This document shows, piece after piece, positions 5,804-61,999 of a DNA stretch of 64,000 bases. The notes beneath the pieces are model-generated. The model searched no databases and was not told where the DNA came from. It was given only the letters and a program-made list of their open reading frames with translations. The first letter of the stretch is position 1, and each line of letters begins with the position of its first letter. Position numbers and translations under genes: made by a program. This DNA comes from an uncultured Acidobacteriota bacterium (GTDB taxonomy: Bacteria; Acidobacteriota; Vicinamibacteria; Vicinamibacterales; UBA2999): assembly GCA_963802675.1 (NCBI GenBank), contig CAWDJL010000005.1, positions 361,193-425,192 of the forward strand. Direction: 5' to 3'.

Positions 5804-6729
5804 GAGAGATGGGCCTCGACGGTCACGCTTCGTTGTCGCCACCAGTCGATGGTGCGCTGGAGCCCCTCGTCCAGGCCGACCTTGGGCCGCCAGGAAGGGA
5901 GCAGCCGCAGCGCTCGTGCTGTATCGGCAACGACGAGCGGCGTGTCGGTCGGTGCAGCCGGAATTGCCCCGAGCCGAATCAACTCAGGCCGTCCAAGGAG
6001 CGAGCCCGCTCGCATCACGATGTCCTTCAATGTGATGGCCTGGCCGGAGGCGATGTTGATCGGCCCGCTGACGTCGCTTTCCAGGAGCGCCACCATCGCA
6101 TCCGCCACATCCTGGACGAACAGGTAGTCGCGAATCTGGAGCCCATGCGAACACTTTGCCGGCTCGCCGTCGAGCACCGACCGGATCACCGAGGCGACCA
6201 GCCGGACCGGGTGCTCGTGGGGACCATACAAGAAGAAGATTCGCGCCCAGGCACTGCTCATGCCGGTGCTCGCCGCGTGGGCCGTGGTCAGTAACTGCAA
6301 GGCATGTTTGCACGTGCCATAGATCGTGTGCGGCTGGCAGGGCGTCCGCTCTTCCGCACAGTAGCCGTAGTGCCAGTCGTACTCGAGACAGGAGCCGGCA
6401 GTCACGACGCGAGTGCCTCCATGCGCCTGGAACGACTGCAGCAGATTGAGACTTGCGCGCACCCAGCGCAGGTTGTCGGGTGCCATTGCCCACTTCCCGG
6501 GCGCGATGTACCACGCCAGGTGGAGCAGATGGCTCGGTCGAACGGTCGCGACGACCGACTCGGTCTGCGAGGCATCGAGCAGGTCCGCGCGATACCACCG
6601 AACCGGACCAGCAGCCGGCTCGCGGTCGCGCGACGACACGCCGTGTACCTCCCACCCGGTGGCCAGCAGACCTGGCAGGATGTGACGCCCGATGCAGCCC
6701 GTTGCCCCGGTAACGAGAACACGTTTCAT
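5800..6729 (-). CDS. NAD-dependent epimerase/dehydratase (extended SDR), likely NDP-4-keto-6-deoxyhexose reductase
   Basis: MKRVLVTGATGCIGRHILPGLL.. (GxxGxxG), YGTCKHA (YxxxK). The start is refined from 6819 to ATG 6729, giving an ATGA overlap with the upstream stop. Confidence 0.75.
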   Translation of the reverse strand: MKRVLVTGATGCIGRHILPGLLATGWEVHGVSSRDREPAAGPVRWYRADLLDASQTESVVATVRPSHLLHLAWYIAPGKWAMAPDNLRWVRASLNLLQSFQAHGGTRVVTAGSCLEYDWHYGYCAEERTPCQPHTIYGTCKHALQLLTTAHAASTGMSSAWARIFFLYGPHEHPVRLVASVIRSVLDGEPAKCSHGLQIRDYLFVQDVADAMVALLESDVSGPINIASGQAITLKDIVMRAGSLLGRPELIRLGAIPAAPTDTPLVVADTARALRLLPSWRPKVGLDEGLQRTIDWWRQRSVTVEAHLS

Positions 6730-39696: not shown

Positions 39697-39719
39697 AAGG
39701 CGGGTGAGAACAGGCCCGT

Positions 39720-39811
39720 CAGTTTCCATTTGCCAGTTACGAGTTCAAAGACGGCCGGTCTGTCCTTTGAACTGACAACTGGCAAACCGGCCACTGGCGA
39801 CTGGCCACTGG
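39720..39811. repeat. CAGTT-word inverted-repeat element, copy 1 (tandem 7-nt words, spacer, complementary words)
   Basis: CAGTTTC CATTTGC CAGTTAC GAGTTCA AAG | acggccggtctgtc | CTTTGAACTG ACAACTG GCAAACCG GCCACTG GCGACTG GCCACTG. The core stem tgccagttacgagttcaaag/ctttgaactgacaactggca pairs 17 of 20. Lies between convergent genes. Confidence 0.75.
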
Positions 39812-39814
39812 AGA

Positions 39815-41032
39815 CTATCCGGGCGGCCGGGAAACGGCCGTGCGGGCACCGCCGCCACCTCCGCCTCCGCTCCCGCCGCTCGAGTAGCCAGAGCCCGATA
39901 CGCTTCCGCCGGACCCGCTGGACCCACTCGAACCACCGCTTCCCTCGGATGCGCCCGTCGAGCCTGACCCAGATGTTGGCGTCGGCACATTCGGGCGCAC
40001 GCGTGTGTAGCCGCGGCCATCGACGACCCGACCGTTGGAATCTGGTTGCACCGGCTGCGGATTGACGATGACGAAACCAGGACCCTGGAAATAGTAGGGG
40101 TCGTAGGATCCCCAGTAGCGATAGCCGAAGGGGGCGAAGTAGGACGTATAGAAGAACGGATCGCTGTAGTACGGCCACATCGAATCGAAGCCGCTCACGC
40201 CCCACGAACCGCCGCCGCTCGTGTTGCGTTCCACCACGAACTTCGACGGGAAGGACTGGGCCACCATCAAGTCGATGATTTGGTCGGGAACGCCCGCCCG
40301 ATCCAACTCGATCAGACGCTCGCCAGTCAAATCGAACCCCTTCTTCAACTCGAAGATCGCGGCCTGCAGCGCCTCGGGAGCGACCTTGGTCACGGCCTCC
40401 TTGACGTCTTCGATCGAGAGCCTCGACGAGAGCGGCACGGCGGGAGTTCGCGGCACAGGTGGCAGCAGGCCAGCATGCTTCTGATTGGCAGCGCGGTGAT
40501 AGCGCCGCACCCGAAGGTTGTTCGTGCCTTCGCTTTCGATCATCTGTACGTCGATCCACAGTGGCCCGAGCATCATCATCGACAGCCCAGAGACCTTCCG
40601 TGGCGCCTGATCGCCGCATGAGATTTCAGCGTCGGCGAAGAGTCGAGCGCCCAGGCCTGACCACACCCCACGCTGCCAGCCGCGGCAGTCCGATTCCGTG
40701 AGCGGCCGCTGCGTACCATCAGCAACGACCGTTTCCGTCAGGACCGGTTCGTCGTTCACGAGCGTCGTCATCGTCACGCCGCCAGTCGCCGGCGTGACGC
40801 AGACCAACGCCCCGGGGATGGCGCGTGAGCGGCCGAGCGACACTAACGCATCGGCGAGCGTTGGTGCGTCGTGTACCGATTCATCGATGATCTGCCAACA
40901 GCCCAGCCACGGGGCCCATCGCGGATCTACTGTCATGGGTCGCGGAGGCGCAGTCTGGGCAGACGCGATCGCCGCTGCGAAAGTCACGATGACGACGGCG
41001 TAGCCGGCGCGCGCAAAGACAGAAGGTCTCAT
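39815..41032 (-). CDS. Hypothetical secreted protein with aromatic-rich segment and Gly/Ser-rich C-terminal tail
   Basis: Signal peptide MRPSVFARAGYAVVIVTFAAAIASAQT, then ..WPYYSDPFFYTSYFAPFGYRYWGSYDPYYFQGPGF.. and ..GSGSTGASEGSGGSSGSSGSGGSVSGSGYSSGGSGGGGGGG. No family recognised. Confidence 0.6.
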   Translation of the reverse strand: MRPSVFARAGYAVVIVTFAAAIASAQTAPPRPMTVDPRWAPWLGCWQIIDESVHDAPTLADALVSLGRSRAIPGALVCVTPATGGVTMTTLVNDEPVLTETVVADGTQRPLTESDCRGWQRGVWSGLGARLFADAEISCGDQAPRKVSGLSMMMLGPLWIDVQMIESEGTNNLRVRRYHRAANQKHAGLLPPVPRTPAVPLSSRLSIEDVKEAVTKVAPEALQAAIFELKKGFDLTGERLIELDRAGVPDQIIDLMVAQSFPSKFVVERNTSGGGSWGVSGFDSMWPYYSDPFFYTSYFAPFGYRYWGSYDPYYFQGPGFVIVNPQPVQPDSNGRVVDGRGYTRVRPNVPTPTSGSGSTGASEGSGGSSGSSGSGGSVSGSGYSSGGSGGGGGGGARTAVSRPPG

Positions 41033-42032: not shown

Positions 42033-43040
42033 ATGATGCGCAGAACACTCGTGGCCGTCGCTGTCATCATTGTCGCGCTTGGGACCCCTCGCGTCGAGTC
42101 GTTCGACCAGGAATCTCCTCGAGCGCCAGCAAAGCTCTTCGTGTTGGACGACCCGTTCTGGCTGAACCTTCATCACTATTTATATGTCCTCGGCCGGGCC
42201 CAGGCGGACATTCCAGACAGCCGTCGACGGGCCGTCGCCGGCGCGCCCGCTGACCAGGCCGAAGGATTGAAGGCGCTCGACCAGGGGGAGCAACGCGCCT
42301 GGCAGAACGCCGTCGCGCTCTACGCCAAGGGCCCGAGCACGCGAGACGTTCTGTTCGATGGTGACATGGTGACACTCGGGCGTACGCTCGTGGCCGCCGG
42401 CGATCGAGCCATGCTTGACAGCGTTGGATTCGATCCGCAGGTCATCGACACGTTGCGTCGCGCGGCGCCACTCTATCGAAAAGCCTGGTGGCCGGGCCAC
42501 GAACGCGCGAATCAGGCCCTGATCACGCGGCTTGGCGCCGACCTGACGAAGCACGGGAACGCGATCCACGCGTTCATCACCCGTGCGTATCGTGAACGGT
42601 GGCCCGCCGACGGTTTTCGCGTCAACGTGGCCGCCTATGCGAACTGGGCCGGTGCGTTTTCGACGAGCGCAGGGGTTCTCGTTGTCTCGAGTCTGGATCC
42701 GGCAGCAGCTGAAGGACTCAAGGGACTCGAGGGAATCTTCCACGAAGCGATGCACCAATGGGACGACGCGATCTTCACCGCGTTGTCGGCGGAAGCTCGC
42801 CGACAGCGTTCGACGGTGCCAGATTCGCTCTCACACGCCATGATCTTTTTCACCGCGGGCGAAGCCGTCCGCAGCGTGGACCCGAGTCATGTGCCGTACG
42901 CCGAAGCCGAAGGGGTCTGGTCTCGTGGCATGGGGAGCCTGAAACCGGCCCTGGAGGCGATTTGGAAGCCGTATCTCGACGGCCGCGGCACTCGCGACGA
43001 GGCGATCGCGGCGCTGATTAAAGCGGTAGCTACTCCGTAG
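42033..43040 (+). CDS. Hypothetical exported protein with HExxH motif
   Basis: MMRRTLVAVAVIIVALG signal/anchor. GIFHEAMHQWD contains HEAMH (HExxH). No family recognised by eye. Confidence 0.5.
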   Translation: MMRRTLVAVAVIIVALGTPRVESFDQESPRAPAKLFVLDDPFWLNLHHYLYVLGRAQADIPDSRRRAVAGAPADQAEGLKALDQGEQRAWQNAVALYAKGPSTRDVLFDGDMVTLGRTLVAAGDRAMLDSVGFDPQVIDTLRRAAPLYRKAWWPGHERANQALITRLGADLTKHGNAIHAFITRAYRERWPADGFRVNVAAYANWAGAFSTSAGVLVVSSLDPAAAEGLKGLEGIFHEAMHQWDDAIFTALSAEARRQRSTVPDSLSHAMIFFTAGEAVRSVDPSHVPYAEAEGVWSRGMGSLKPALEAIWKPYLDGRGTRDEAIAALIKAVATP

Positions 43041-43042
43041 CA

Positions 43043-43218
43043 AAGTGCCTAGGGTGCCTGTTGTGCCTCGGTGCCTGAGTGCGGGTGCCTAGGTGCACAT
43101 GGTGCCTAGGTGCCTAAGGTGCGAGAGCACTCAGGCACCCTAGCACCTCAAGCACCCTGGCACTGGCACTTAGGTACCGAGGGCACCCTCGGCACTTAGG
43201 CACGTTGCTGAGGCACCT
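43043..43218. repeat. GTGCCT / AGGCAC word-array inverted repeat (~175 nt imperfect palindrome)
   Basis: Nine GTGCCT-like words with 8-9-nt spacing (starts ~43045, 54, 63, 71, 85, 93, 102, 110, 119). After a centre at ~43126-43130 come about ten (A/G)GCAC(C) words up to ~43217. Lies between two plus-strand genes. Confidence 0.8.
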
Positions 43219-45800: not shown

Positions 45801-45894
45801 TCGCTTCGGACTTCCGCCTGAAGGCGGAAGCCACGAGTCATAACAGTATCGCGTGGCTTCCGGCTTTAGCCGGAAGATCGCAGGCGCGAAGCGA
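45801..45894. other. Structured intergenic element: 8-bp closing stem enclosing three hairpins (candidate ncRNA / bidirectional terminator)
   Basis: tcgcttcg (45801-08) pairs with cgaagcga (45887-94). cttccgcc-tgaa-ggcggaag (45811-30). ccacg..16 nt..cgtgg (45831-56). cttccggc-ttta-gccggaag (45857-76). All stems are perfect Watson-Crick. Lies between convergent genes. Confidence 0.5.
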
Positions 45895-49348: not shown

Positions 49349-49377
49349 CGCGTTGTGGAATCATGGAAACGCCGAAT

Positions 49378-49453
49378 CAGTTTCCAGTGATCAGTTGCCA
49401 GTTCAAAGCAACACGCCTTTGAACTGATCACTGGCAACTGGCCAACTGGCCAC
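49378..49453. repeat. CAGTT-word inverted-repeat element, copy 2, inside the moxR-DUF58 operon and abutting the DUF58 start codon
   Basis: CAGTTTC CAGTGAT CAGTTGC CAGTTCA AAG | caacacgc | CTTTGAACTG ATCACTG GCAACTG GCCAACTG GCCAC. Shares CAGTTTCCA, GTTCAAAG/CTTTGAACTG and the ACTGGCC tail with copy 1 (39720-39811). Confidence 0.75.
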
Positions 49454-49457
49454 CGAT

Positions 49458-58384: not shown

Positions 58385-59965
58385 ATGAAGAGACGAGACT
58401 TTGTAAAGACCCTTGGCGCGACCGGCGTCGCCCTCTACGCGAGTGACCTGGTCGGCAACCTGCTCGCGCAATCACCGAAGGCCAAAGTCCTCGAGTCTCG
58501 GTTCAAGGGACTTTCGGACATCGCGCTCACTGAAGCGAAGAAGCTTGGCTGCACGTACGCGGACGTGCGTTTCACGCGCAACGTCAGCGACAGCATCGGT
58601 GTGCGCGACAAGATTGTCTCCGGCGGCGGCGGCTTTGGTGGTGGTGGGCGCGAGGAGAGTGCGGGATTTGGCGTCCGCGTCATTCATAGCGGAGTCTGGG
58701 GATTCGCCAGCAGCCCATTTGTCAGCGACGACGAGGTCAAGCGCATCACGCTTCAGGCGAGCGACGTGGCCAAGGCGAGCGCCGTGAGCAAGCGCTTCGA
58801 GGTCAAGCTCGCGCCGACACCCAGCTACGTCGACTACTGGGCGGCGCCAGTCAAAGTCGACCCGGACTCGGTGTCGCTCGACGACAAGATCCAGTTCCTG
58901 GTCACGTTGAACGAGGTGGCCCTGAAACAGCCCGACATCATGCGCGTGCAGTCACAGATTGCCGTCGATTTCGAATGGAAGTATCTAGCCACCTCCGAAG
59001 GGTCCTACATCGAGCAGGAGCTCTGGCGTACGTTCCCGAGCTTCAGCGTAACGGCTCGCAAGGGTAATCAGGTGAAGCAGCGGGCCTTCACGGTCCCCCC
59101 GCGGACGGGCGGCTACGAGATTGCGCGCGACGGCAAGATGCTCGAAAACGTGGAGCGTATCTGCGCCGAAGCCGCGGAGCATTGCACCGCACCGCCGGCG
59201 GGTGTGGGGTTGAAAGACCTGATCATCAGCCCGTCGCACGCGATGTTGACGATTCATGAGATCGTCGCCCACGCCACCGAGCTGGACCGCATCGTCGGCT
59301 ACGAAGCCAACTACGCGGGCACGAGCTTCGTCAAGCTGAGCGATCTCGGGACATTGAAGTACGGCTCGAAGCTCTTCAACGTGACCGCCGACCGCACCAT
59401 CGCCGGTGGAATGTGCACCGTCGGATACGACGATGATGGGGTCAAGGCGCAGGAGTGGCCGCTGGTACGTGAAGGGGTCCTCGTCGGCCTGCAAACCAAC
59501 CGCGAGACCGCGCACTACATTGGTGAGAAGGAATCACGCGGGTGTACGTTCGCTACGTCGTGGCGGAATTACCCGTTCCTCCGAATGCCGAACGTTCATG
59601 TCGATGCGGGCCCGCCGGGATCACCAACCCCGGAAGAGATGATCGCGGATACGAAGGACGGCGTCCTGATCGATGGCCGCGGCAGCTACTCGATTGACCA
59701 GCAGCGCTACAACGGTCAGTTTGGGGGCGACGCGTTCTGGGAAGTGAAAAACGGCAAGAAGACCCGGATGGTCAGCGACGTCACCTACAACGCGATCACC
59801 ACCGATTTCTGGTCCAATCTCGACGCGATCTCCGGTAAGGAATCGTGGGAGATGTTTGGCACGACGGGCGACGCGAAAGGGCAACCCGTGCAGATCAATC
59901 ATCCGTCGCACGGGTCCCCCTGGCTGCGTATTCGCAGAATCATGGTCGGGACGGCCTATAGCTAG
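58385..59965 (+). CDS. TldD-family metallopeptidase with Tat signal, paralogue 2
   Basis: MKRRDFVKTLGATGVALYAS (RR signal), CTYADVRF, GFGVRVIHSGVWGF, LTIHEIVAHATELDR (HExxxH). Collinear with 55369..56961. Confidence 0.85.
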   Translation: MKRRDFVKTLGATGVALYASDLVGNLLAQSPKAKVLESRFKGLSDIALTEAKKLGCTYADVRFTRNVSDSIGVRDKIVSGGGGFGGGGREESAGFGVRVIHSGVWGFASSPFVSDDEVKRITLQASDVAKASAVSKRFEVKLAPTPSYVDYWAAPVKVDPDSVSLDDKIQFLVTLNEVALKQPDIMRVQSQIAVDFEWKYLATSEGSYIEQELWRTFPSFSVTARKGNQVKQRAFTVPPRTGGYEIARDGKMLENVERICAEAAEHCTAPPAGVGLKDLIISPSHAMLTIHEIVAHATELDRIVGYEANYAGTSFVKLSDLGTLKYGSKLFNVTADRTIAGGMCTVGYDDDGVKAQEWPLVREGVLVGLQTNRETAHYIGEKESRGCTFATSWRNYPFLRMPNVHVDAGPPGSPTPEEMIADTKDGVLIDGRGSYSIDQQRYNGQFGGDAFWEVKNGKKTRMVSDVTYNAITTDFWSNLDAISGKESWEMFGTTGDAKGQPVQINHPSHGSPWLRIRRIMVGTAYS

Positions 59966-59971
59966 CGCTAA

Positions 59972-60100
59972 GGTTCCACGGTTCCAAGGTTCCAGGGTTC
60001 CAAGGTTCCGAAGTTCCAAGGTTCGAACCAGACGTTTTCAAGTTCAGCTGATCTGATCGTGCAACCCTGGAACCCTGGAACTATGGAACCCTGGAACCTT
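59972..60100. repeat. GGTTCC / GGAACC word-array inverted repeat, copy 1 (8-nt period)
   Basis: GGTTCCAC GGTTCCAA GGTTCCAG GGTTCCAA GGTTCCGA AGTTCCAA GGTTCGAA (59972-60027), a 33-nt spacer, then AACCCTGG AACCCTGG AACTATGG AACCCTGG AACCTT (60063-60100). Lies between convergent genes and touches the BON stop codon. Confidence 0.85.
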
Positions 60101-60575
60101 ACGATCGAGGCTGCACCCCCAGGTTGTTCACGACTTTGTAACCCTCCGCCCGCCTCTTGGCGATCGCTTCGGCGGCATCGCGTTCGGTCGCTGTCGACAC
60201 GTAGCCGTTGAGTGTGACGGTACGAGTTCGATAGTCGGTTGAGACATCCAGTCTCGTCGCGTCAACCGAAGGGTCGGCCATGAGTGCCGCTTTCACGTCG
60301 ACGGTGACCTTTGCGGCGCTGGCCCGTTCCGCCACCTCTTCACCCGCTTCGGCAGCAACGTTCGCGACCTTGTCGGCGGCGCTTTTCGCCTCGCGTCCGA
60401 GTTCACGAGCCGCTTCGCCAGCCTTGGCGCGCTCATCACGCGTCGCGGCTTCGGCTTGTTCGGCATCCTGCTTGACTCCTTGAGCGGTTCGATCGCAGGC
60501 AGCGGCGGCGGCAATGGCCAGCGCCGTGACGCATCCGATAATGAAAGCGTTGATCCCGCCAATGGTTCGATGCAC
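60099..60575 (-). CDS. BON-domain lipoprotein
   Basis: Lipobox ..ALAIAAAAAC, an A/E/K-rich linker, then VTVDVKAALMADPSVDATRLDVSTDYRTRTVTLNGYVSTATERDAAEAIAKRRAEGYKVVNNL (BON domain). GTG start with GGAGA upstream. Confidence 0.8.
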   Translation of the reverse strand: MHRTIGGINAFIIGCVTALAIAAAAACDRTAQGVKQDAEQAEAATRDERAKAGEAARELGREAKSAADKVANVAAEAGEEVAERASAAKVTVDVKAALMADPSVDATRLDVSTDYRTRTVTLNGYVSTATERDAAEAIAKRRAEGYKVVNNLGVQPRS

Positions 60576-60622
60576 AGTTCAGTTCTCCATCTGCGGAGTA
60601 ACCAAAACGCGTACCACGTTTA

Positions 60623-60785
60623 GGGTTCCAAAGTTCCAGCGTTCCAAAGTTCCAAAGTTCACCTAGGTTTGCCGGTTCCTGCGTTGTAGCGTTCGAATAC
60701 TCAACGGGAGACCCATGCTGGAACCTGCGCATTGAACCCTGGAACCTGGAACCTGGAACTTTGGAACGTTGGAACCTAGGAACTA
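60623..60785. repeat. GGTTCC / GGAACC word-array inverted repeat, copy 2
   Basis: GGTTCCAA AGTTCCAG CGTTCCAA AGTTCCAA AGTTCACC (60624-60663), a ~55-nt spacer, then ..GAACCCT GGAACCT GGAACCT GGAACTTT GGAACGTT GGAACCTA GGAAC (to 60785). Lies between the DUF4159 stop and the BON start. Confidence 0.85.
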
Positions 60786-61481
60786 TAGAGCGTAGACCAC
60801 GAGATTGACCGCGAAGCGGGTGTTATCTTCGCGCTGAAAACGCTTGTTGCGCCAGTCGTAGTCCCACTCGCAACCGTAATCCTTGTTGGAATACAGCACG
60901 CCAACACGACCGCGATGTTCAACGGCGCGAAGGTAATCGTGGACGAGATCGTCGCCCCAGCCGTTCAGCTCGTGAGCTGTTTGAGGAGGACCGTCAGGAA
61001 AATCAAAGAAGGCGCTGTACAAGGCATGGCTGCGGGCGAGCTTGTCGAGCGTCTTGGGACCCGGAAAAATCGTCCGCATTTCCTGTTCAAACGACACCGC
61101 GTACAGCCCAGCGATGTCGTGATTGCAGTCATCGGAAAAGAGAAAACCGCCAAGCTCGACGTATTGCTGGAGGCGTTCGCGTTCCTTGCCGCTGAAACGC
61201 ACCAGCTTGTGCCCCGTCATGAACAGAAACGGAAAGGCGTTGAGCTCTTCGGAGTCGGCAGTGATGACGACTTCTTCGGGATAGATACGGATGTTGGTGT
61301 ACTCGACGATGGAATTGAGAACGTTGGCAGCGACTTTGGGGTTGTAGTCCCAGTCGCCGGAGTCGTAGCGCAGGCGAGCAAATGTGAACTCGGAGCCTCG
61401 GGGACGAGCCGCCGCTCGCTGTTCCAGAGTTCCACGGTTCCAAAGTTCCAAGGTTCCGTGGAACCCTTGAGTCGAACCCAT
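60783..61481 (-). CDS. DUF4159 domain protein
   Basis: EFTFARLRYDSGDWDYNPKVAANVLNSIVEYTNI..AFPFLFMTGHKLVRFSGKERERLQQYVELGGFLFSDDCNHD matches DUF4159 as I recall it. The N-terminal 20 aa (MGSTQGFHGTLELWNRGTLEQ) are encoded by a GTTCC word array, so the true start is uncertain. Confidence 0.75.
   Translation of the reverse strand: MGSTQGFHGTLELWNRGTLEQRAAARPRGSEFTFARLRYDSGDWDYNPKVAANVLNSIVEYTNIRIYPEEVVITADSEELNAFPFLFMTGHKLVRFSGKERERLQQYVELGGFLFSDDCNHDIAGLYAVSFEQEMRTIFPGPKTLDKLARSHALYSAFFDFPDGPPQTAHELNGWGDDLVHDYLRAVEHRGRVGVLYSNKDYGCEWDYDWRNKRFQREDNTRFAVNLVVYAL
61421..61468. repeat. GTTCC word array, copy 3 (one arm plus short palindrome), inside the DUF4159 5' end
   Basis: GTTCCAGA GTTCCACG GTTCCAAA GTTCCAAG GTTCCGTG GAACCCTT. 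GGTTCCGTGGAACC is a local palindrome. Confidence 0.8.
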
Positions 61482-61534
61482 CGAGGCCAGTATAACTGGC
61501 CATCGACGGGCTCGATCGGGGGAGGGCGCTGGGG

Positions 61535-61999
61535 CTACGAACGTGGCTTCACAACCAACCGGTTGTCGATCTTGTAGCCCTCGGCTTCGCGTGCAGCGAT
61601 CTTTCCGGCTTCAGCCTTTTGTTCGGCTGAAGGGACCGAGCCCTTCAGAACGACGGTCTTGGTCTCGCGGAAAGTATCCACGTTGATGTCGCTTGCGTCG
61701 ACTGAGGCATCAGACATCAGTGCCGTCTTTACATCGATCGTCTCGGCAGCGGCATCGATGGCGGCGCCAGCGTCACCGGCTGTCCGACGGACGTCGTCTT
61801 TGGCCTCACGGCCTTCCGCCTTGGCTTCGGCGGACTCCTCACGCGCCTTGTCCTTGGCGTCAGCGGTCGCTTCCTGTGCGTCGCGTTTCGCCTCGGCCGC
61901 ATCCTCGCGCGCTCCGCGAGCCGTGTTGTCGCACGCCGCGGTCATCACGGCGAAGACGAACGCCGCACCCATTGCCATCCATCCAGTGTGCCGTCTCAC
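61535..61999 (-). CDS. BON-domain lipoprotein, paralogue 2
   Basis: Lipobox AVMTAAC, an A/E/K/D-rich linker (AEAKRDAQEATADAKDKAREESAEAKAEGREAKDD), then IDVKTALMSDASVDASDINVDTFRETKTVVLKGSVPSAEQKAEAGKIAAREAEGYKIDNRL. Confidence 0.8.
   Translation of the reverse strand: MRRHTGWMAMGAAFVFAVMTAACDNTARGAREDAAEAKRDAQEATADAKDKAREESAEAKAEGREAKDDVRRTAGDAGAAIDAAAETIDVKTALMSDASVDASDINVDTFRETKTVVLKGSVPSAEQKAEAGKIAAREAEGYKIDNRLVVKPRS

Follow-up and report, generated by a model that had tools for sequence, protein, structure and literature searches.

Within a 64,000-nucleotide (nt) stretch of DNA from an uncultured Acidobacteriota bacterium (contig CAWDJL010000005.1, positions 361,193 to 425,192; hereafter the window), three arrays of a tandem 8-nt GGTTCC-type word are packed around a TldD/PmbA-family gene, a BON-domain gene and a DUF4159 gene. 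We consider it about an even chance (probability near 0.5) that these arrays are slippage-driven, self-expanding repeat palindromes, tolerated at the 3' ends of genes and perhaps serving there as RNA hairpins. The class to which they belong comprises quasi-palindromes found across bacterial phyla, whose arms are made of a tandem 7-8-nt word. Its architecture, polarity, position, abundance, strain-level turnover and independence of any particular word are directly supported by the comparisons described here, from which we infer the mechanism, slippage combined with strand switching, and the role as an RNA hairpin.

Quasi-palindromes with tandem arms at gene ends

Three (GGTTCCNN)n arrays (59970-60024, 60624-60660 and 61421-61457) were detected by reading of the sequence and by Tandem Repeats Finder (TRF) at period 8, in agreement with the initial annotation of this region. 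With at most 2 mismatches allowed, GGTTCCNNGGTTCC has 32 matches in the window against 6.3 +/- 2.4 in shuffled sequences, a number that 0 of 100 shuffles reached, and 24 of the 32 matches fall in 59972-61465.

The first two arrays are each followed by an array of the complementary word, and the resulting elements 1 and 2 are quasi-palindromes (Table 1). The initial annotation had described this pairing and had separated the arms by spacers of 33-55 nt; the pairing stands, but the spacer of element 2 measures 72-95 nt. Nor are the spacers unrelated sequence, since they consist of degenerate units themselves, and when an element is aligned with its reverse complement the match extends to within 3-4 nt of the centre. 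Watson-Crick pairs account for 49 of the 63 aligned pairs of element 1 (59969-60033 against 60037-60101) and for 52 of 65 in element 2 (60625-60692 against 60697-60767), the outer units being clean and the inner ones degenerate. The third array has a single complementary unit only, and element 3 forms a short hairpin in which 61447-56 pairs with 61461-70. The ends of the elements read TAAGGTTCC and TAGGGTTCC.

As foreseen for arms that are internally periodic, pairing is possible in three registers, with 90%, 84% and 79% complementarity. The long hairpins that had been anticipated are also predicted at the RNA level on both strands and are very stable, with minimum free energies (MFE) of -73.2 kcal/mol (+) and -77.4 (-) for element 1, -78.6 (+) and -76.5 (-) for element 2, and -23.5 (+) and -25.3 (-) for element 3. 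Rfam covariance models at gathering score returned no matches across the whole window.

Elements 1 and 2 begin 0-4 nt from stop codons. Element 1 occupies the entire gap between the stop codons of the TldD/PmbA gene (+) and the BON gene (-), and its outermost unit includes the BON stop TAA. DUF4159 is immediately followed by element 2, its stop codon (60783-85) falling inside the last, slightly degenerate unit, and the element stands 42 nt upstream of the BON start (60575). The earlier placement of the arrays at gene junctions is correct for these two elements. The third array is not intergenic; it is in frame within the 5'-terminal part of the DUF4159 open reading frame (ORF), whose start ATG is at 61481 (-). 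The DUF4159 Pfam domain begins at residue 33, there is no alternative start before the domain, and the array of element 3 corresponds to residues ~8-20.

Turnover among close relatives

A protein-guided scan of metagenome contigs yielded 80 orthologous DUF4159 loci (71-96% amino acid identity), and the locus was further compared with Logan contigs from soil and rhizosphere runs. In the nearest relatives, loci L120 and L121 (96% amino acid identity in DUF4159, 92-96% at the nucleotide level), as well as in contigs of runs X1, X6 and X7, element 2 is wholly absent; position 60616 is joined to 60790 via 16 nt, and the DUF4159 protein ends in ...YALSS* rather than in ...YAL* as in the window. Loci L122 and L123 (87%) likewise have no hairpin at this site. 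Because nearest and more distant relatives alike are without a hairpin there, element 2 is most simply interpreted as a gain in the lineage of the window.

The other two sites differ in size. Element 1 has 5/4 units in L120 against 7/5 in the window, so that both arms have changed, and there is a 6-nt difference in the centre. At the element 3 site, the sequence of L122 is MGSIDLGQRAAARPRGSEF, without insert, whereas the window is longer by 39 nt and L120 and L121 by 126 nt that form a complete array-loop-array; all versions are multiples of three and free of stop codons. Elsewhere among the orthologous loci, L193 and L194 differ in the copy number of the word GGGGCAT. The arrays thus change fast and each site independently, which bears out the expectation that they expand and contract between strains.

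Since assemblers do break contigs at such arrays, an assembly artefact, or chance low-complexity sequence, might be suspected. Elements 1 and 3, however, were found again in independent Joint Genome Institute (JGI) and Logan metagenome assemblies with flanks 92-96% identical, arrays are carried by complete genomes of isolates, and the shuffles given above never reach the observed count. The artefact that the initial annotation had itself raised as an objection is refuted by this cross-assembly evidence to the point of being negligible.

One architecture, many words

At the stop codon of orthologous DUF4159 genes we found the words TTGGAGG, AGCTTCC/AGCTGCC (AGCTKCC), CAGTTGC, GGTGAATT, GTAGGCA, GGTCCGT, GGGGCAT, CTAACAA, CACGAAGA and GGTTCGGG in addition to GGTTCC, and most of these arrays are then followed by an inverted array of the complementary word. 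About two-thirds of the orthologous DUF4159 ends have no hairpin. In this unbiased set there are 47 different words among 57 arrays. Periods of 7 (29 arrays) and 8 (12 arrays) are the most frequent, and among the words the GGTTCC type forms a plurality of ~10%. Because one orthologous stop codon carries the same architecture with unrelated words, the conserved feature is the architecture and not the word.

The same architecture recurs in the window itself, where long hairpins stand at six gene ends in 25 kb. A GGTGCC element, which starts at the stop codon of the upstream gene, reaches predicted MFE values of -122.9 and -113.8 kcal/mol and showed no multi-copy depth excess in soil metagenomes. 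There are also two copies of a CAGTTKCCAG element (Table 1), with common arms (..GCCAGTT..GTTCAAAG / CTTTGAAC..AACTGGC..) and different loops, both followed by short (ACTGGCCA)-type arrays. In an Acidobacteriota metagenome-assembled genome (MAG; locus L023, ~6170-6200), the word GGGAATC known from Xanthomonas forms a tandem array ~100 nt from a long GGTTCC array, and one genome can therefore hold several word families.

The GGTTCC family across genomes

Species-representative genomes were scanned for three exact units of (GGTTCCNN), which gave at least 119 stretches. The matches listed comprise 46 from Acidobacteriota, 27 from Actinomycetota, 11 from Bacteroidota, 10 from Planctomycetota, 6 from Chloroflexota and 3 from Cyanobacteria, besides others; among cultured carriers, Sulfidibacter corallicola M133 has one array (locus L075). 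Among them, 25 of the 142 array clusters are pairs, mostly in Acidobacteriota and Bacteroidota, and in every pair GGTTCC lies 5' of GGAACC, the reverse never being found (25:0, binomial p ~3e-8). As each arrangement reads identically on both strands, this polarity is a real asymmetry.

The position of arrays was scored by whether the end or start of an ORF of at least 100 codons lies within 45 nt of an array side, with random positions as controls. Of the sides of paired arrays, 60-62% had an ORF end within that distance, compared with 13% of random positions, and the distance from the stop codon to the first unit peaks at 0-6 nt and is often 0. The full octamer is specific to each genome, for example GGTTCCGT in a Chloroflexales MAG, GGTTCCTC in Thermoanaerobaculia and GGTTCCTG in a Planctomycetia MAG. 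The dominant spacer dinucleotide is common to 40% of locus pairs within a genome and to 7.8% between genomes; this excess points to copying or homogenisation within genomes. In soil metagenomes, arrays reach 100-700x the depth of flanking genes while their flanks diverge (loose-end agreement 0.4-0.6), from which hundreds of different array contexts in soil can be deduced.

A related arrangement was seen in viral contigs L201 (2554-2636), L202 (2693-2778), L208, L227 and L232, where (GGAACCGT)x3 is followed by a GC-rich palindrome (CGCGCGCG...) and (ACGGTTCC)x3, with further scattered copies nearby. Its polarity is opposite to that of the bacterial pairs, and the region looks like an origin (iteron) or operator.

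Origin and possible function

We hypothesize that replication slippage inside arrays would add and remove units, that strand switching or hairpin-templated repair would keep the arms complementary, and that copying between the arrays of one genome would homogenise the word. Arrays might then expand outwards until halted by selection, which would explain why they end exactly at stop codons, sometimes supplying the stop itself, and why an intragenic array survives only in frame and in a tolerant tail, as element 3 does. A quasi-palindrome generated by slippage with strand switching fits the data because unit numbers change in both arms, the words vary and the arrays halt exactly at coding sequence.

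Repetitive extragenic palindromes (REPs) take part in mRNA stabilisation and transcription termination, and in E. coli those within ~15 nt of a stop codon stall the terminating ribosome. Transcribed arrays would fold at mRNA 3' ends into highly stable stem-loops in which the pairing register can shift, with probable REP-like roles as a barrier to 3' exonucleases and a partial terminator; an element within a few nt of a stop codon may possibly also act as a brake on the terminating ribosome. Canonical terminator-like sites are not enriched (11 against 13 +/- 3.5 expected in 20 kb of the window) while six gene ends carry long hairpins, and a REP-like role of 3' RNA hairpins is accordingly plausible as a model. 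Any such function is dispensable at a given site.

Several observations weigh against the slippage model. Slippage alone leaves unexplained the strict polarity, with the GGTTCC arm always 5' (25:0), and a passive process explains neither the genome-specific octamer nor the same hexamer core in many phyla. Among the matches listed, 117 of the 142 clusters are unpaired, hidden degenerate partners were found for 4 of these 117 with a noisy control, and arrays without a partner are found equally often close to the start and to the end of an ORF. A 173-nt element with old-looking inner units has appeared within ~5-8% nucleotide divergence; because element 2 is complete, its inner units look old and the divergence is small, insertion of a ready-made copy fits better here than gradual growth. 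In 13 hairpins downstream of DUF4159 there is no G:U bias on the sense strand (~41 G:T against ~46 A:C mismatches), and these mismatches thus give no positive sign of selection at the RNA level. GGTTCC arrays do occur in metatranscriptome contigs, but the transcript data consist of assembled contigs only, which break at arrays and leave transcript 3' ends unmappable, and this too counts against the model.

Some of these difficulties would disappear if a dedicated, sequence-specific machinery, such as a transposase, a nuclease or a phage- or plasmid-borne system, wrote or copied GGTTCC arrays and had spread horizontally among soil and aquatic phyla. Such machinery would account for the absolute polarity, the genome-specific octamer, a complete 173-nt element that appears all at once, and a core that recurs from Acidobacteriota to Bacteroidota and Cyanobacteria. 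We regard it as rather a long shot; if true, it would represent a new mobile or templated repeat in which the unit of propagation is the array and not a fixed sequence.

A more conventional form of mobility, which we consider unlikely on balance, is that the elements are non-autonomous mobile elements of the REPIN or miniature inverted-repeat transposable element (MITE) type, in which the GGTTCC units would be putative terminal binding sites for a transposase or nuclease, perhaps RAYT-like or phage-borne, and whole elements would be copied to new sites, preferably TA-containing stop codons. The polarity is what terminal inverted repeats would show, and the octamer specific to each genome, the presence or absence of the complete 173-nt element as a unit and the hundreds of flanking contexts in soil (at high depth and with low loose-end agreement) agree with it, as do a distribution that crosses phyla, the occurrence of arrays in viral contigs and the insertion sequence (IS) elements that are associated with paired octamer sites of Geobacter (PMC2700814). 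Mobile elements of this kind should nevertheless share internal sequence, and no similarity of loops or inner parts was seen from one copy to another, not even among those of a single genome; a comparison of the inner 85 nt of element 2 with the window and with loci L001-L199 gave no further match. The single filled/empty pair (window against L120/X1/X6/X7) has no target-site duplication, with ragged boundaries and 16 nt replaced. Orthologous sites carry unrelated words, unit number changes in place, and the REP head motifs GTAG/CGTC are absent from the elements.

Two functional explanations start from the position of the elements. If they were dedicated transcription terminators, bidirectional at convergent genes and maintained by selection, with periodic arms as an adaptation for robust folding, their abutment on stop codons, the exact filling of the convergent gap by element 1, the stability of the hairpins on both strands and the lack of enrichment of canonical terminators in this genome would all be expected. 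A scan for hairpins with a U-tract, however, found no site at the elements and no T-run follows the arms; element 2 is absent in the nearest relatives and most orthologous DUF4159 ends are hairpin-free; element 3 lies inside an ORF; the hairpins show no G:U strand asymmetry; and an element of the same architecture stands between a MoxR-type ATPase gene and a DUF58 gene, which usually form one operon. That a pure terminator role is insufficient had already been argued from the positions of the arrays, and we retain the conclusion on the grounds of the absent U-tract, the missing element 2 in the nearest relatives and the in-frame element 3; the positional reason itself is weak, because element 2 lies directly 3' of the DUF4159 stop, which is inside the outermost unit, and its position is therefore compatible with a terminator. 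We consider this explanation doubtful, and still less probable the alternative that a global regulator, nucleoid protein or roadblock protein binds the arrays as double-stranded DNA, with polar recognition of the 8-bp word. Fixed polarity, a word specific to each genome, and the iteron- or operator-like arrangement of (GGAACCGT)x3 around a GC-rich palindrome in phage contigs would suit a binding protein, and the same interpretation has been proposed for the Geobacter octamer sites (PMC2700814). Against this, many unrelated words occupy orthologous sites, unit number and presence vary freely, neighbouring sites with a period of 8 bp do not lie on the same face of the helix, polarity is reversed in the phage arrangement and no candidate protein was identified.

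Other resemblances were considered and set aside. Integron attC sites (RYYYAAC ... GTTRRRY) have the opposite polarity to GTTCC ... GGAAC, and the flanking genes here are of mixed orientation, no integrase search having been made. The GGAAC of extracytoplasmic function (ECF) sigma factor -35 boxes is present, but the variety of words argues against this identity. Mimicry of a tRNA T-arm, suggested by GGTTCGAA at element centres, has nothing else in its support, and the resemblance to the GTTC targets of IS91 may be a coincidence. A general rule that the G/T-rich strand forms the 5' arm holds for only ~8 of 12 words.

Gene context and other features of the window

A Pfam scan of ten window proteins identified three TldD/PmbA genes, two BON genes and DUF4159, confirming the names originally assigned (Table 1). 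The DUF4159 ATG is preceded at a distance of 7 nt by a conserved TATACT (window 61482-61500, L120-L123 and others), which points to a -10 box and to an mRNA with a very short leader or none; more distant DUF4159 orthologues instead have twin-arginine-type signal peptides at the N-terminus. In rhizosphere metatranscriptome contigs the second BON gene far exceeds the rest of the locus in depth (170-316 against ~11 for TldD, run X2), and an Ala/Glu/Lys-rich segment of this gene includes a 33-nt tandem duplication (61804-61866).

Table 1. Coordinates of the repeat elements, their arrays and the neighbouring genes in the window
Feature	Position	Strand	Description
Element 1	59969..60101	.	133-nt quasi-palindrome; 5' arm 59970-60024, 3' arm 60060-60101; inner units degenerate
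Element 1, 5' array	59970-60024		TRF 6.9 copies of AAGGTTCC
Element 1, 3' array	60063-60098		TRF 4.5 copies, complementary word
Element 2	60617..60789	.	173-nt quasi-palindrome centred on TTCGAA (60692-97); arms are a (GTTCCNNN) array 60624-60660 and a complementary array 60733-60784
Element 2, first array	60625-60660		TRF 4.5 copies
Element 2, second array	60738-60783		TRF 6.1 copies, complementary word
Element 3	61421..61470	.	~4.6 units, then one complementary unit 61460-65
Element 3, array	61421-61457		TRF 4.6 copies
GGTGCC element	43039..43209	.	(GGTGCCNN)n then (GGCACC)n; 171-nt quasi-palindrome from the stop of the upstream gene (43038-40)
CAGTTKCCAG element	49357..49455	.	between MoxR-type AAA_3 ATPase gene and DUF58 gene
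CAGTTKCCAG element, second copy	39717-39816		arms common with 49357-49455
TldD/PmbA-family gene	58385..59965	+	stop 59963-65, 4 nt before element 1 (Pfam)
BON-domain gene	60099..60575	-	convergent with TldD; stop 60099-60101 embedded in element 1 (Pfam)
DUF4159 gene	60783..61481	-	element 3 after codon 4; stop embedded in element 2 (Pfam)
Second BON-domain gene	61535..61999	-	upstream of DUF4159 (Pfam)

Two adjacent small hairpins lie between convergent genes at 45804-45883, CTTCCGCC-TGAA-GGCGGAAG and CTTCCGGC-TTTA-GCCGGAAG. In soil metagenomes they have 50-100x the depth of flanking genes, with divergent flanks, and loci L144 and L145 carry comparable 'CTCCGGCCTTCAGGCCGGAG' hairpins downstream of DUF4159. 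These hairpins seem to form a REP-like family of their own within the lineage. Farther upstream, region 15334-38450 holds four very large ORFs (1356 and 2012 amino acids on the minus strand, 2079 and 1356 on the plus strand) with motifs of the nonribosomal peptide synthetase (NRPS) condensation type and the polyketide synthase (PKS) acyltransferase type (GHSLGEY) and a mutual identity of 34-35% over more than 1000 amino acids. It is probably a hybrid NRPS/PKS gene cluster in divergent arrangement.

Comparison with known repeat systems

An excess of intergenic 7-8-nt tandem repeats in bacteria has been reported repeatedly and never explained. No description of a GGTTCC octamer was found in a literature search limited to non-subscription journals, which accords with the initial annotation in so far as it recognised no described family; the class as such, however, has been described with other words. 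The closest parallel is the heptamer repeats GGGAATC of Xanthomonas and GGGGA(C/T)T of Nostoc/Anabaena (Rehm et al. 2015, PMC4692102). In Xanthomonas, GGGAATC forms 70-75 pairs that are 'always' convergent, one array per strand; ~90% are intergenic, with a mean distance of 28 nt to the upstream ORF and a much longer one to the downstream ORF; they are under-represented between divergent genes, are transcribed, vary in length and sequence between close relatives and have been proposed to act through G-quadruplexes (PMC4692102). As cited in that paper, over-representation of heptamers was reported in 2007 and polymerase slippage has been put forward as a hypothesis for the excess of heptamer simple sequence repeats.

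The GGTTCC arrays resemble those of Xanthomonas in having tandem units of at least 3-4 (TRF 4.5-6.9 copies), in pairing only convergently (25:0), in length variation between relatives and in an intergenic position near the 3' end of the upstream ORF, element 3 inside its ORF being the exception. They differ in a unit of 8 rather than 7 nt, in their distribution over many phyla instead of one genus, and in that they abut or overlap the stop codon. Runs of G in their units never exceed GG, and they share the architectural class of the Xanthomonas repeats without belonging to the quadruplex-forming (G4) subgroup. As GGTTCC has no G-runs, quadruplexes cannot be the unifying principle; a convergent-pair architecture built from a non-quadruplex word weakens the G-quadruplex explanation for the class as a whole. 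The unrelated words at one orthologous stop codon in turn imply that it is an architecture or a generating process, and not a binding motif, that is conserved.

Paired tandem octamers have also been described in Geobacter metallireducens, where 'class 1 predicted global regulator binding sites' consist of four tandem octanucleotides GTTGCTYN, in opposite-strand pairs at variable distance and in dozens of copies, with IS elements inserted at fixed distance (Aklujkar et al. 2009, PMC2700814). Their word is different, they are read as protein binding sites, and the text consulted reports no bias of position toward stop codons. Cyanobacterial short tandemly repeated repetitive (STRR) heptamers and the TAACTGA direct repeats of Beggiatoaceae, Cyanobacteria and Bacteroidetes, the latter a single word common to distant phyla with no known mechanism of transfer (MacGregor 2015, PMC4679880), are likewise intergenic tandem units, of 7 nt. 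Unlike the GGTTCC pairs, nearly all are direct repeats with no inverted partner (169 direct sets, 1 indirect), and most lie just upstream of start codons.

With REP/REPIN elements, which are mobilised by RAYT transposases (Di Nocera et al. 2013, PMC3733652), the elements have in common that they are extragenic palindromes with long hairpins, multi-copy, genome-specific in sequence and often 3' of genes. They lack the GTAG/CGTC head, however, and their arms are tandem arrays of variable number and not one 20-40-nt palindrome; no RAYT gene was identified among the ten Pfam-scanned window proteins, no search aimed at a linked transposase having been made. Rho-independent terminators, including the U-tract-less 'I-shaped' hairpins of GC-rich bacteria, are similar in that a stable hairpin directly follows the stop codon and is symmetric at convergent genes, and differ from the elements in their U-tract, in stems of 5-15 bp as against 50-80 nt, in arms that are not periodic and in the absence of a counterpart to the copy inside an ORF.

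The filled, empty and resized versions of the three sites within ~4% protein divergence (DUF4159) amount to natural experiments on the birth of such elements and their effects on expression. The GGTTCC family is apparently very abundant in soil metagenomes, and contigs that break at its arrays are a practical issue for assembly. Set beside the systems above, the GGTTCC repeat constitutes a new, very widespread variant, octameric, non-G4, cross-phylum and stop-abutting, of a known kind of bacterial repeat.

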